DNA of 64,000 nt from Enterobacteria phage XTG1: sequence record KT184316.1; one strand, 5' to 3'. Positions 58,217 to 60,182 of this stretch are shown one piece after another. The notes under the pieces are model-generated. The model ran no database searches and was not told the DNA's origin. It saw only the letters and a program-made list of their open reading frames with translations. Numbering within the stretch: position 1 is the stretch's first letter; each line of letters begins with the position of its first letter. Position numbers and translations under genes: made by a program.

Positions 58217-58681
58217 TTACTTTGGATATACACTGTCAAGATAAATGTTAGCTTCCATTCTACGTCTGTTTTTCAGTCCGTTTGAAGTAACCTTCTCACC
58301 TTTGACTGTAATCTTGTTCCACCACTGCATAGCTTCTGCACAACCTACCTTATTACCAGCATTGTGGCGCTTGATAAATGTAGAGTCCTGCATAGCTGTG
58401 ATACCGATGTTGTATGTTTCACTTACAAGTGCGTCGAACTCATTCTGAGAAGTGGGAACCTTGATAGCTTTGTTCACTGCTGCAACAAACTTTTCAACAT
58501 CTGTGAGAAGATACTGTTCAGCTTGTGCAGCCGTGATTTTCATACCCATCTTAACAGGTTTTCCGTCAATACGGATTGTACCATACCCGATTGTTGGGAT
58601 TCCGGCAGAATCTTTGTAAGCCTCTAACTTCAGACCTTCAAAGAACTTAATGGCTTCTAAGCCTTTTCTTGAGAGTTGCAT
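58217..58681 (-). CDS. Endolysin, T4-type lysozyme
   Basis: FEGLKLEAYKDSAGIPTIGYG contains the Glu/Asp/Thr catalytic arrangement of T4 lysozyme-like proteins. Confidence 0.85.
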   Translation of the reverse strand: MQLSRKGLEAIKFFEGLKLEAYKDSAGIPTIGYGTIRIDGKPVKMGMKITAAQAEQYLLTDVEKFVAAVNKAIKVPTSQNEFDALVSETYNIGITAMQDSTFIKRHNAGNKVGCAEAMQWWNKITVKGEKVTSNGLKNRRRMEANIYLDSVYPK

Positions 58682-59814
58682 TATACCTCCCCTGCTGGGT
58701 TAACTGTGACTGTTGCTGCATTAGATGTTACAGAACCACCTGCACCAGTAACTACACAGGTGTAGCTTCCTGAATCAGTAGCGGTTGCACCTTCTTTGGT
58801 GTAAGTTGCAGTAGTTGCATCGAGGATGTCTTCCTCACCTTTCTTCCACTGATAACCTGTCGCACCTGTTGCCACAACATTCAGTGTTAAGGTCTCACCT
58901 TCAGTGATTTCTTGATTGGTTGGTTGCTGAGTGATTACCGGAAGTGCATTCACAGTTACTACAGCAGCATTAGATTCCACTGCACCACCTGCACCTGTTA
59001 CAACGCAAGTGTATGAACCAGCATCTGCTGGCAGCGCACCAGACTTGCTATAGGTAGCCTCTGTAGCCGAAGGAATGTCAGAGCCATCTTTCTTCCACTG
59101 GTAACCCGTTGCACCCGTTGCAGTCACTTCCAAGCTGATGTTTCCACCCTCATTGATGGTCTGGCTAGAAGGTTGCTGTGTAATCACAGGCAGTGCGTTG
59201 ACAGTAACTGTTGCCGCATCTGAGGTAACACTTGTACCAGCCTCTCCAGACACAACACAAGTATAAGAACCAGCATCAGAAGGTGCTACAGACTGTTTTG
59301 TGTAAGTTGCAGAATTGGCACTAGGGATATCCTCACCATCCTTCTTCCACTGATATCCAGTGGCGTTAGTTGCTAGAATGCTTAGAGTAAGTGTGCCACC
59401 CTCATTGACTGTTTGACCTGTTGGTTGCTGAGTAATTGCTGGTGGCTTAATAGCATCCTTCAACTTAGCATTCAACATTGAGAACGGCTTAACTCTTGCC
59501 AACCATTCGCAGTAAATTGTGTCAACATCTTTACCATTGATGATTGCATACTGCAAATCCATGAAGAAATCAGCAGTTCTCATCTGTGCACCAACACTGT
59601 AAAGGAGTTCATCACTAAAAGGAACTTTGTAGTCTGGTTTGTAATCAAACTTCTCAACTTCTGCAATATCAGCTTCAGGCCAATATGAACTATAGGTAAG
59701 TGGTAAAATAGCCTCTTGATATGTTCTAAAATCATATCTCTTACCAGCCTTTACATTTGCAACGAAACCTTTTACAAATTCTTTGAAGTCTGGGTAAGTC
59801 TTTGCTTTAATCAT
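58681..59814 (-). CDS. Protein with three tandem Ig-like domains
   Basis: Three ~90-aa repeats each with ATGYQWKK(D/G)…SYTCVV; N-terminal ~125 aa paralogous to the next ORF; 1-nt overlap with the lysozyme start. Confidence 0.65.
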   Translation of the reverse strand: MIKAKTYPDFKEFVKGFVANVKAGKRYDFRTYQEAILPLTYSSYWPEADIAEVEKFDYKPDYKVPFSDELLYSVGAQMRTADFFMDLQYAIINGKDVDTIYCEWLARVKPFSMLNAKLKDAIKPPAITQQPTGQTVNEGGTLTLSILATNATGYQWKKDGEDIPSANSATYTKQSVAPSDAGSYTCVVSGEAGTSVTSDAATVTVNALPVITQQPSSQTINEGGNISLEVTATGATGYQWKKDGSDIPSATEATYSKSGALPADAGSYTCVVTGAGGAVESNAAVVTVNALPVITQQPTNQEITEGETLTLNVVATGATGYQWKKGEEDILDATTATYTKEGATATDSGSYTCVVTGAGGSVTSNAATVTVNPAGEV

Positions 59815-60182
59815 TTCTTTTTAGCCTCTAAACGTGCGTTTAATCTAAAATAGCCTTTATGTTGTGGAGACACATCACTAACAACAATACCTTCAACTTT
59901 ATAGCCCTTACCAATTACATACTGGATATCCATAAGAAACGTACCAAGCCCAACAATGTGGAACATTGGGTATAGTAACTTATCTGAATCTGGGAGTTTA
60001 ATTTCTGGTTTATAGGTAGGTTGTTCGGCAGTTGGTGTAATATCTTCTTCAGGCCATTTGCTAAGTCTCCATGTTAAAGGTGATGCAATAACATCGTTAA
60101 GATTATATCTCTCACCTTTCTCCACGGAATTAATATAGGATTGTAGGAAGCAATAAAAGTCTTTTGCACTCTTAGCCTTCAT
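59811..60182 (-). CDS. Paralogue of the N-terminal domain of the Ig-like protein
   Basis: 123 aa; shared motifs (YxxxxxxYKP(D/E)xK(L/V)P(D/F)SD(E/K)LLY, F(F/L)MD(L/I)QY(A/V)I). Confidence 0.5.
   Translation of the reverse strand: MKAKSAKDFYCFLQSYINSVEKGERYNLNDVIASPLTWRLSKWPEEDITPTAEQPTYKPEIKLPDSDKLLYPMFHIVGLGTFLMDIQYVIGKGYKVEGIVVSDVSPQHKGYFRLNARLEAKKK

Follow-up and report, generated by a model that had tools for sequence, protein, structure and literature searches.

The closest described relatives of the locus analyzed here are the head decoration proteins of phages Sf14 (gp20) and Bas63 (Hex-Dec), Hoc-like monomers, one of which plugs the centre of each pentamer-proximal hexamer (60 per T=9 capsid) (PMC11821841, PMC12609058). 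As observed by cryo-EM, the decoration protein sits at hexamer centres on the facet edges only (PMC12609058, PMC11821841). For Sf14 gp20, the binding mode of the capsid-binding domain (CapBD), including the contacts of Arg79 and Arg107 with Asp221, has been published and the protein was detected in particles by mass spectrometry (MS) (PMC11821841). Furthermore, Felix O1 Gp36 was found by MS in CsCl-purified virions with a sequence coverage of 44%. The structure of this decoration protein, its site on the capsid and its variable number of Ig domains were already published in 2025, and the main feature of the present locus adds nothing new; only the small, conserved copy of the CapBD encoded upstream is undescribed.

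The window, i.e. the whole stretch of 64 kb that was analyzed, is 100% identical to Escherichia phage vB_EcoM_ASO1B (Felixounavirus, MZ726792.1). The three genes and the flanking hairpins described below lie on the minus strand. Taken as a whole, the locus is very likely best explained as encoding an ounavirus hexamer-centre head decoration protein together with an old accessory paralogue consisting of the CapBD only, both in one unit with the endolysin.

The Ig-like protein and its relation to known decoration proteins

The Ig-like ORF (ASO1B_041, 58681..59814) encodes 377 amino acids, which comprise a 123-residue N-terminal domain and three Ig-like repeats of 83–84 residues each. Pfam matches to Ig_3 (E=5e-33) and I-set (E=1e-25) were obtained in three stretches each, far beyond chance, and the motifs YQWKK (residues 154, 238 and 321) and SYTCVV (residues 183, 267 and 350) were located as well, so that the three tandem repeats described in the original prediction were recovered. 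The N-terminal domain (residues 1–123, 59446..59814) matches the CapBD modelled in 9ncf_S and 9c2d_S position by position and is assigned as a putative CapBD of the Hex-Dec/gp20 type. It is followed by repeat 1 (R1, residues 124–207, 59194..59445, matched by Pfam Ig_3/I-set), the internal repeat 2 (R2, residues 208–290, 58945..59193), which is lost or recombined in relatives with one or two Ig domains, and the conserved terminal repeat 3 (R3, residues 291–373, 58696..58944), which is 92–98% identical to the last repeat of the relatives. The C-terminal tail PAGEV and the TAA stop codon (58681..58695) carry the Shine-Dalgarno sequence of the endolysin gene, GGGGAGG, at 58686-58692.

Using phmmer, the Ig-like protein was matched to Bas63 Hex-Dec (PDB 9ncf_S) with E=2.5e-286 (residues 1–344 to 1–344) and to Sf14 gp20 (PDB 9c2d_S) with E=4e-169 (residues 1–371 to 1–370). 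The N-terminal 123 residues are 98% identical to those of a near-identical relative with three Ig repeats. Both Arg79 and Arg107 are present in the CapBD and invariant across 24 distinct orthologues, and dN/dS of this domain amounts to 0.047. The capsid partner is alike, too: the major capsid protein of ASO1B (7283-8386 of its locus) is ~99% identical to that of Bas63 (9ncf_A) and ~93% to that of Sf14, and D221 is kept. As judged from sequence, Bas63 Hex-Dec, Sf14 gp20 and Felix O1 Gp36 are orthologues of the Ig-like protein, and the GenBank label 'tail protein', which ASO1B still carries along with many further Felix O1-like records, is to be regarded as wrong and should be corrected. The proposal of a Hoc-type Ig-like decoration protein is right and already published, because orthologues have been solved on the capsid by cryo-EM and detected in virions by MS.

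That the protein belongs to the tail instead, as annotated for ASO1B_041 in GenBank, for Felix O1 Gp36 ('major tail protein') and for PHROG 3995, is extremely unlikely. Among PHROGs, phrog_3995 'tail protein' is indeed its best match (E=4e-208), 'major tail protein' PHROGs are matched by the Ig part, and the GenBank annotations agree. However, the label derives from Ig-domain similarity alone and goes back to how Felix O1 was annotated, whereas two independent cryo-EM structures place the N-terminal domain of the orthologues in the capsid hexamer centres and not in the tail. Furthermore, the genuine tail tube and sheath proteins are encoded by other genes, and a tail assignment was already refuted for Sf14 and Bas63.

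With respect to its homologues, the head decoration protein of ASO1B would dock after capsid assembly, the ~120-residue CapBD of one monomer occupying the central depression of each pentamer-proximal hexamer (60 in the T=9 capsid). Salt bridges would link Arg79 and Arg107 to Asp221 in the major capsid protein. The three Ig-like domains would extend outward as a flexible fibre, and the 20 facet-centre hexamers would be left empty. This placement on the ASO1B capsid is suggested by the capsid-linked domains, which are 88–98% identical between the Ig-like protein and its relatives. In analogy to T4 Hoc, the Ig fibre probably adheres weakly to surfaces, glycans or other particles; the mucus adherence pointed to in the original prediction would likewise be an analogy to T4 Hoc.

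The resemblance to Bas63 Hex-Dec (9ncf chain S) and Sf14 gp20 (9c2d/9c3a chain S) comprises full-length orthology, a CapBD with R79 and R107, the type of Ig repeat and the gene order paralogue, Hex-Dec, endolysin. Bas63 Hex-Dec differs by having four Ig repeats instead of three, the additional one being distinct and located between R2 and R3, while Sf14 gp20 carries three repeats as in ASO1B but is more divergent (56–67% identity per repeat). CapBD homology, the set of Arg79/Arg107 and Asp221, a chain within the range of one to four Ig domains and the gene position would all place the ASO1B protein in the Hex-Dec/gp20 type of the Ounavirinae.

For comparison, T4 Hoc is likewise a hexamer-centre monomer with a small capsid-binding domain and an outward string of Ig-like domains; a non-essential decoration role is assumed, and the gene is found away from the main head module. 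In T4 Hoc, however, the Ig domains are N-terminal, with a C-terminal capsid-binding domain, an order which is reversed in the ASO1B protein, and ounavirus Hex-Dec fills only 60 of the 80 hexamers. The capsid-binding domains of T4 Hoc and Bas63 Hex-Dec exhibit distinct topologies and no sequence similarity (PMC12609058). PHROG matches of the Ig-like protein annotated 'Hoc-like' cover the Ig part only (residues 120–290), and no T4 Hoc chain was found among the best 60 of 125 PDB sequence matches at E≤0.01. With the domain order reversed and the 'Hoc-like' matches limited to the Ig part, the protein was not assigned to the T4 Hoc family. Phage T5 pb10 (PDB 5lxk, 8zvi) contains a related Ig domain (E=2.4e-12, query residues 131–207 to pb10 residues 80–159). 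It has one Ig domain only, and its capsid-binding domain does not align to the ASO1B CapBD; since the match to 8zvi_a and 5lxk_A is confined to the Ig domain, membership in the pb10 family was rejected as well. T5 is not known to encode a CapBD-only paralogue.

Age and copy number of the Ig-like repeats

The sister repeats R1–R3 share 66–69% pairwise protein identity. In the nucleotide self-comparison proposed earlier, identities of 65–68% (gapped) and 59–67% (in-register) were obtained, and Tandem Repeats Finder reported no array in 58500-60300, because the repeats are too diverged at the DNA level. The description of the repeats as highly similar therefore holds for the protein only. Synonymous differences between the sister repeats are saturated (pS 0.65–0.84). 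Furthermore, every repeat shares 92–98% identity with the orthologue at its position in other felixounaviruses (R1: 92–93% to the first repeat of the relatives), whereas identity to its sisters is only 67–68%. Evidently, the recent internal duplication suggested in the original prediction is contradicted by these values. For R1, dN/dS was 0.126.

A comparison of the copy number among relatives, which had likewise been suggested, revealed one to four Ig repeats. The lengths of Hex-Dec in 27 loci were 210/211 residues (n=3), 294/298 residues (n=11), 372/377 residues (n=11) and 461 residues (n=2). Chimeric repeats were identified in EC6-like phages (R1/R3), in Felix O1 (repeat 2, R2/R3) and in Tf (repeat 1, R1/R2). 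These sequence relations indicate that the Ig repeats are old and that their number shifts between strains by in-register recombination, leaving chimeric repeats behind, instead of by recent duplication; recombination between repeats often took place near the conserved ATGYQWKK stretch. Because homologues are present in virions by MS (Sf14 gp20, Felix O1 Gp36) and the repeat number varies between 1 and 4, the decoration reading withstands both findings which the original prediction had named as speaking against it, namely absence from virions and an invariant repeat number.

The CapBD-only paralogue

Upstream of the Ig-like ORF, ASO1B_042 (59811..60182) encodes a protein of 123 residues without Ig repeats, which belongs to PHROG 4463 (E=8e-78) and corresponds to Felix O1 ORF37 (87% identity), Sf14 FDI99_gp021 and Bas63 bas63_0125 (93% identity). 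It is 38% identical to residues 1–119 of the Ig-like protein, with a local alignment score of 162 compared to 28 ± 5 for 500 shuffles, so that the claimed duplication of the N-terminal domain as a separate, Ig-less ORF proved correct. Comparing the paralogue and CapBD groups, 35 positions were invariant in both, mostly aromatic, Pro, Gly or hydrophobic residues, and 42 were fixed differences. Together with the match to 9ncf_S (E=7e-14), the shared invariant positions suggest that the paralogue keeps the CapBD fold signature. The capsid-contact arginines are gone: position 79 is Gly in 25/25 sequences and position 107 is Q, H, N or K. This loss speaks only weakly against binding to the capsid, as both arginines are also missing from distant family members which bear Ig domains. 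A profile search run exhaustively over 1.84 billion representatives returned only 12 family members, which leaves no wider family to borrow a function from. The AlphaFold2 model, built from an alignment of 17 sequences, was poor (pLDDT 62, pTM 0.56), and a Foldseek search of the PDB with this model gave no match at E≤0.001. According to the Sf14 authors, AlphaFold mispredicts this domain (PMC11821841).

Of 252 related phage records, about 232 contain the paralogue at >60% identity and about 8% lack it. It is intact (122–124 residues) in 29/29 sampled orthologues from three genera despite a dS of ~0.8, and dN/dS over these 29 orthologues is 0.12, which corresponds to purifying selection. In Felix O1, ORF36 and ORF37 both reach their peak expression at 60 min (Table 3 of the Felix O1 study). 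That a partial tandem duplication left the gene behind without function is accordingly quite improbable. Such a leftover would agree with the dispensability of the gene in nature, as it is a pseudogene in Shigella phage Tf (start codon lost, ~180 nt deleted) and Kolesnikvirus is without it, and with non-synonymous change about 2.5 times faster than in the CapBD. Against it stand the intact orthologues, the late transcription and a dN/dS which is like that of R1 and not far from that of the endolysin (0.084). A decaying duplicate was consequently ruled out as the main reading on grounds of the dN/dS and the 29/29 intact copies, yet the gene was lost in the Tf lineage. The paralogue arose long ago as a duplicate of only the capsid-binding domain and is a functional accessory gene expressed late, whose fold-determining residues were kept and whose surface was changed.

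No report places the paralogue in virions. It is not on the Felix O1 virion MS list, for which a coverage cut-off of 25% was used, nor among the proteins which the VpaE1 proteome adds to that list. The Sf14 supplement contains no MS table mentioning gp21, and the Sf14 table covers named structural genes only. Neither the Sf14 nor the Bas63 cryo-EM paper mentions the paralogue, which both phages encode, and no density was reported on the hexamers other than those occupied by Hex-Dec (PMC11821841, PMC12609058); a monomer located on a three-fold axis loses cryo-EM signal when icosahedral symmetry is averaged. On this evidence, all of it negative, the paralogue probably does not form a stable part of the virion.

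The paralogue might nevertheless be a second, Ig-less decoration protein which caps the 20 facet-centre (true three-fold) hexamers free of Hex-Dec. It belongs to the same fold family as the CapBD and is expressed late jointly with Hex-Dec, and its altered surface includes the arginines whose geometry reportedly bars gp20 from three-fold hexamers (PMC11821841). Furthermore, the paralogue is basic (pI 8.9) and the hexamer centre is Asp-lined (PMC11821841). However, with no facet-centre density in two cryo-EM studies of phages encoding it, with its absence from the Felix O1 and VpaE1 virion lists, and with the pseudogene in Tf and the records lacking the gene, this reading is rather improbable.

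As a best guess, we infer that the paralogue may act transiently on capsid hexamers or on the loading of Hex-Dec during head assembly. It could occupy procapsid hexamers for a time as a plug or placeholder, or be a competitor which would set where and when Hex-Dec loads. Only tentatively, and with rather more doubt than belief, can it be specified as a neofunctionalised Ig-less copy, be it a non-virion hexamer plug, placeholder or Hex-Dec competitor, or a low-occupancy facet-centre cap hidden by averaging and cut-offs. If true, the paralogue would be a previously unrecognised partner of the decoration protein, conserved across three ounavirus genera. As a conserved, late-expressed protein absent from both structural papers, it poses a small, testable question on the control of hexamer-centre decoration. 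Felix O1-like phages are used in the biocontrol of Salmonella and E. coli, and Hoc-like sites are used for display; knowledge of small proteins which compete for or prepare the hexamer site is therefore of some applied interest.

Gene overlaps and flanking hairpins

The unit runs from the paralogue via Hex-Dec to the endolysin and is chained by stop/start overlaps, with hairpins on both sides. Paralogue stop and Ig start overlap in ATGA (59811-59814). At this junction, a programmed -1 frameshift at T-AAA-AAG before the paralogue stop could fuse both products to a tandem-CapBD protein: the 3' end of the ASO1B paralogue reads GCT AAA AAG AAA TGA, the Hex-Dec frame is -1 relative to the paralogue, and a slip on AAA-AAG would get past the TAA of the -1 frame. 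We consider such a fusion hardly credible and rejected it, because Mooglevirus (GCTAAGAAATGA) and Suspvirus (GCTAATAAAAATGATTAA) do not share the run; two felixounaviruses deviate as well (GCTGAAAAG). Moreover, the heptamer is non-canonical, and Gp36 of Felix O1 was identified with the mass predicted for it alone, 31.6 kDa.

The last of the three genes (58217..58681) encodes a GH24 endolysin (lysozyme; PF00959, E=8e-41), annotated as muraminidase/endolysin in the relatives. Its start overlaps the Ig stop in TAATG, with base 58681 in common, and a GGAGG-like motif is found at its Shine-Dalgarno position in 26/27 loci. Synteny and overlaps are kept in the 27 loci as well as in Felix O1, Sf14 and Bas63. 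The overlap with the lysozyme gene noted before is thus real, but the neighbourhood is not unusual, being fixed in the subfamily across Felixounavirus, Mooglevirus, Suspvirus and, without the paralogue, Kolesnikvirus. The Hex-Dec gene directly upstream of the endolysin lies outside the structural module; for Bas63 the authors gave a distance of >10 kb (PMC12609058).

A scan for sigma-70 promoters yielded 12 candidates compared to 10.8 expected in shuffled sequence, so that no promoter is claimed for the unit, and an Rfam scan of the whole window returned tRNAs only. Directly downstream of the endolysin, a terminator-like hairpin, AGGCTCCTTCGGGAGCCT followed by TTTTTATTTT, is located at 58190..58207. 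The upstream boundary of the unit is marked by a G+C-rich hairpin directly upstream of the paralogue (60206..60221), composed of AGGGGCTAATGCCCCT and then TTATCTATTT, whose stem is kept in phage Tf.

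The Ig protein as a capsid decoration protein

The 2.4 kb around the three-gene locus matched Escherichia phage vB_EcoM_ASO1B (MZ726792.1, Felixounavirus; the record is described in PMC10612097) at 100% identity and >150 further Felix O1-like phages at 92-95%. A PDB sequence search with the 377-aa Ig protein (58681..59814, minus strand; ASO1B_041, 'tail protein') returned two near-full-length matches. The first, at E=2.5e-286, was the 460-aa Hex-Dec from phage Bas63 (PMC12609058), deposited as 'Immunoglobulin-like domain protein' (9ncf chain S); the second, at E=4e-169, was the 372-aa gp20 from Shigella phage Sf14 (PMC11821841), deposited as 'Putative tail protein' (9c2d/9c3a chain S). 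On the T=9 heads, both proteins occupy pentamer-proximal (facet-edge) hexamers only, no density was reported at the facet-centre hexamers of either phage, and the Ig domains are flexible and without resolved structure (PMC12609058, PMC11821841). In Sf14, gp20 is bound through salt bridges from its Arg79 and Arg107 to the Asp221 residues in three capsid subunits, the Asp221 geometry differs at the true three-fold hexamers, and gp20 was found in particles by MS (PMC11821841). Furthermore, the 2-Ig orthologue Gp36 of Felix O1 was present in CsCl-purified virions with 44% coverage, labelled 'tail protein' (published virion proteome). The original prediction of a Hoc-type capsid decoration protein is thus borne out by full-length orthologues at capsid hexamers (Bas63, Sf14) and in virions (Sf14, Felix O1). 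The assignment as a tail protein was rejected, as the orthologues sit at capsid hexamers in Bas63 and Sf14; the Felix O1 label is the source of this wrong annotation and of the PHROG 3995 label.

In the ASO1B protein both R79 and R107 are present, being invariant across 24 distinct orthologues, and the ASO1B major capsid protein (L033:7283-8386, outside the window) is ~99% identical to that of Bas63 and retains D221. Judged from sequence, the homology, the two arginines and D221 argue for membership of the Hex-Dec/gp20 decoration family, every feature checkable here being present. Hex-Dec and T4 Hoc are alike in function and architecture, but their domain order is reversed and their anchors are not homologous; the capsid-binding domain (CapBD) at the N terminus in Bas63 is larger than and topologically distinct from that of Hoc (PMC12609058), and 'Hoc-like' PHROG matches are limited to residues 120-290 of the Ig protein. 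T5 pb10 likewise consists of an N-terminal anchor and then an Ig domain, which is related to those here (E=2.4e-12); the anchor, however, is not common to both. By analogy, the ounavirus Ig domains may mediate adhesion. How Hex-Dec is built, where it sits on the capsid, that it is present in virions and that its Ig number varies were already known, having been published in 2025, and the interest of the finding is therefore low; its residual value lies in the correction of the 'tail protein' annotation, the recombination behind copy-number change and an unstudied CapBD-only paralogue.

Age and copy number of the Ig repeats

The observation from which the analysis started was confirmed as real: the Ig repeats R1, R2 and R3 (aa 124-207, 208-290 and 291-373) carry YQWKK at residues 154, 238 and 321 and SYTCVV at residues 183, 267 and 350, and Pfam recognized Ig_3/I-set in three stretches (E=5e-33 and 1e-25, respectively). 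The N-terminal domain is indeed duplicated upstream, the paralogue being 38% identical to residues 1-119 of the Ig protein with an alignment score of 162 versus 28 +/- 5 for 500 shuffles. The description of the repeats as highly similar holds for the protein (66-69% pairwise identity) but not for the DNA, where identity was 65-68% in gapped alignment and 59-67% in register and Tandem Repeats Finder detected no repeats. The proposed recent internal duplication had to be abandoned. Sister repeats have reached saturation at synonymous sites (pS 0.65-0.84), and the longest exact in-register runs span 13-14 nt. The ASO1B repeats are 67-68% identical to their sisters, far below the values for positional counterparts in other phages, which were 92-93% for R1 against first repeats, 93% for R2 against repeat 2 of a 4-Ig phage and 92-98% for R3 against last repeats. 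This positional orthology, together with the saturation, indicates that the repeat duplication is old.

As anticipated, the repeat copy number varies among relatives. Hex-Dec lengths in 27 sampled loci were 210/211 aa (3), 294/298 aa (11), 372/377 aa (11) and 461 aa (2), corresponding to 1-4 Ig domains, in agreement with the published range (PMC12609058, PMC11821841). Window-by-window nucleotide comparison unveiled chimeric repeats: in an EC6-like phage, the only repeat resembles R1 over its first ~84 nt and R3 in the remainder, repeat 2 of Felix O1 is an R2/R3 chimera and repeat 1 of phage Tf an R1/R2 chimera; another 2-Ig phage carries clean R1 and R3 without any chimera. The switch point adjoins ATGYQWK, where the repeats are best conserved at the DNA level (mean identity 86%). 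The chimeras and the position of the switch show that the Ig copy number changes by in-register recombination between repeats. Among ICTV species, four repeats were described in Bas63 only (PMC12609058); Bas63 is not unique in this respect, since at least five other GenBank felixounaviruses (pinkbiff, MET-P1-301, DaR-2019b, DR094, AN17P8; hits H115-H119) carry 4-Ig genes, which also occur in two IMG/VR contigs (L012, L016). The metagenomic protein P0053 (209 aa) is a Hex-Dec variant whose frame is lost within Ig repeat 1, just past YQWK, either by sequencing error or by natural truncation, leaving the CapBD and a third of an Ig domain.

Gene unit and endolysin neighbourhood

The paralogue (59811..60182, minus strand, 123 aa; ASO1B_042, 'hypothetical') overlaps the Ig gene by ATGA, and the Ig gene shares one base (TAATG) with the Phage_lysozyme/GH24 endolysin (58217..58681, minus strand, 154 aa; PF00959, E=8e-41), as read from the sequence. 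The endolysin Shine-Dalgarno GGGGAGG (58686-58692, minus strand) falls within the closing codons of the Ig gene, and 26 of 27 related loci keep a GGAGG-like motif at this place, so that translation of the endolysin constrains the Hex-Dec C-terminal tail. On the same strand, a G+C-rich hairpin (60221-60206) is located just 5' of the paralogue ORF; another hairpin, which is terminator-like and has a clean T-run (58207-58190), follows just 3' of the endolysin. Consequently, with overlaps, embedded Shine-Dalgarno and bracketing hairpins, the three genes look like one unit. A sigma-70 promoter scan performed no better than chance (12 found versus 10.8 expected from shuffles), and hence no promoter is claimed.

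The order paralogue, Hex-Dec, endolysin was found in 25/25 IMG/VR loci spanning all three genes (two further loci, which stop at a contig edge, were left out) and in Felix O1, Sf14 and Bas63. The stop/start overlap noted at the outset is therefore real, but the neighbourhood is not unusual. In Erwinia Kolesnikvirus, Hex-Dec adjoins the lysin, no paralogue is present and a single Big_2-type Ig follows the CapBD, which resembles an exchange of Ig domains on a CapBD anchor that has stayed conserved; Erwinia phage Fifi318 (L034:2501-3115) is an example with Big_2-type Ig in place of the I-set repeats. As Hex-Dec lies next to the lysin gene across these loci, Kolesnikvirus included, endolysin adjacency is an old conserved trait of the subfamily and not peculiar to ASO1B.

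Downstream of the endolysin, its minus-strand gene block includes a 177-aa ORF (54841-55374; ASO1B_033, 'membrane protein'; no Pfam match) that has two hydrophobic segments and is a candidate for the missing holin.

The CapBD-only paralogue

The paralogue (PHROG 4463, no assigned function) is the sole part of the locus without coverage in the literature examined; neither structure paper (PMC12609058, PMC11821841) contains a relevant mention of 'gp21' or 'paralog'. A close orthologue (>60% identity) was found in 232/252 related phage records, and the ORF is intact (122-124 aa) in 29/29 sampled orthologues. Its dN/dS was 0.12, compared with 0.047 for the CapBD, 0.126 for Ig repeat 1 and 0.084 for the endolysin. 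About 20 of the 252 records gave no paralogue-level match (best identity <60%); in Tf (L031:2306-2497), the only one inspected, the paralogue is a pseudogene whose start ATG has become ATA and which carries frameshifts and has lost ~180 nt internally. Paralogue and CapBD have 35 invariant positions in common, mostly aromatic, Pro, Gly or hydrophobic, and 42 fixed differences; the R79 position is Gly in 25/25 paralogue sequences, the R107 position Q/H/N/K, and the paralogue pI is 8.9 versus 6.3 for the CapBD. Felix O1 ORF37, the paralogue at 87% identity, peaks in expression at 60 min, in a group that includes ORF36 as well as several tail and portal genes (published RT-PCR). We conclude that the paralogue is functional, an accessory gene of the late class whose product keeps the CapBD fold and has an altered surface; that it lacks a function, as its decay in Tf might suggest, is very unlikely. 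The CapBD family is tiny (12 representatives among 1.84 billion proteins), and identity between paralogue and CapBD (35-41%) is close to that between enterobacterial and Erwinia CapBDs (39%), so that this duplication is old as well. R79 or R107 is also missing in distant Ig-bearing family members; the loss of both in the paralogue is no proof of lost capsid binding.

The paralogue is neither among the 17 virion proteins of Felix O1 (published virion proteome) nor among the three that VpaE1 particles yielded in addition, and most likely it is not a stable virion component. Sf14 (FDI99_gp021) and Bas63 (bas63_0125, 93% identity) both encode it, and neither structure reported the paralogue or any density on undecorated hexamers (PMC11821841, PMC12609058); that it caps the 20 facet-centre hexamers is unlikely. 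Tentatively, and with low confidence, we favour a transient role, in which the paralogue would act at capsid hexamers or in Hex-Dec loading. Fusion to Hex-Dec by frameshifting might be read from its end, GCT AAA AAG AAA TGA (59817-59828, minus strand), a slippery-looking A-run one frame off the Hex-Dec ORF, but is extremely improbable because this run is not conserved in Mooglevirus or Suspvirus.

Elsewhere in the window, a 471-aa protein (61893-63308, plus strand) combines DUF2828 (E=3.5e-29) and DUF7788 (E=2.3e-43); the records of Sf14, Tf and Felix O1 name it 'RNA-binding protein'. Its gene lies directly 5' of the phage tRNA array (first tRNAs at 63474-63632), and a tRNA-related or RNA-related role is possible.
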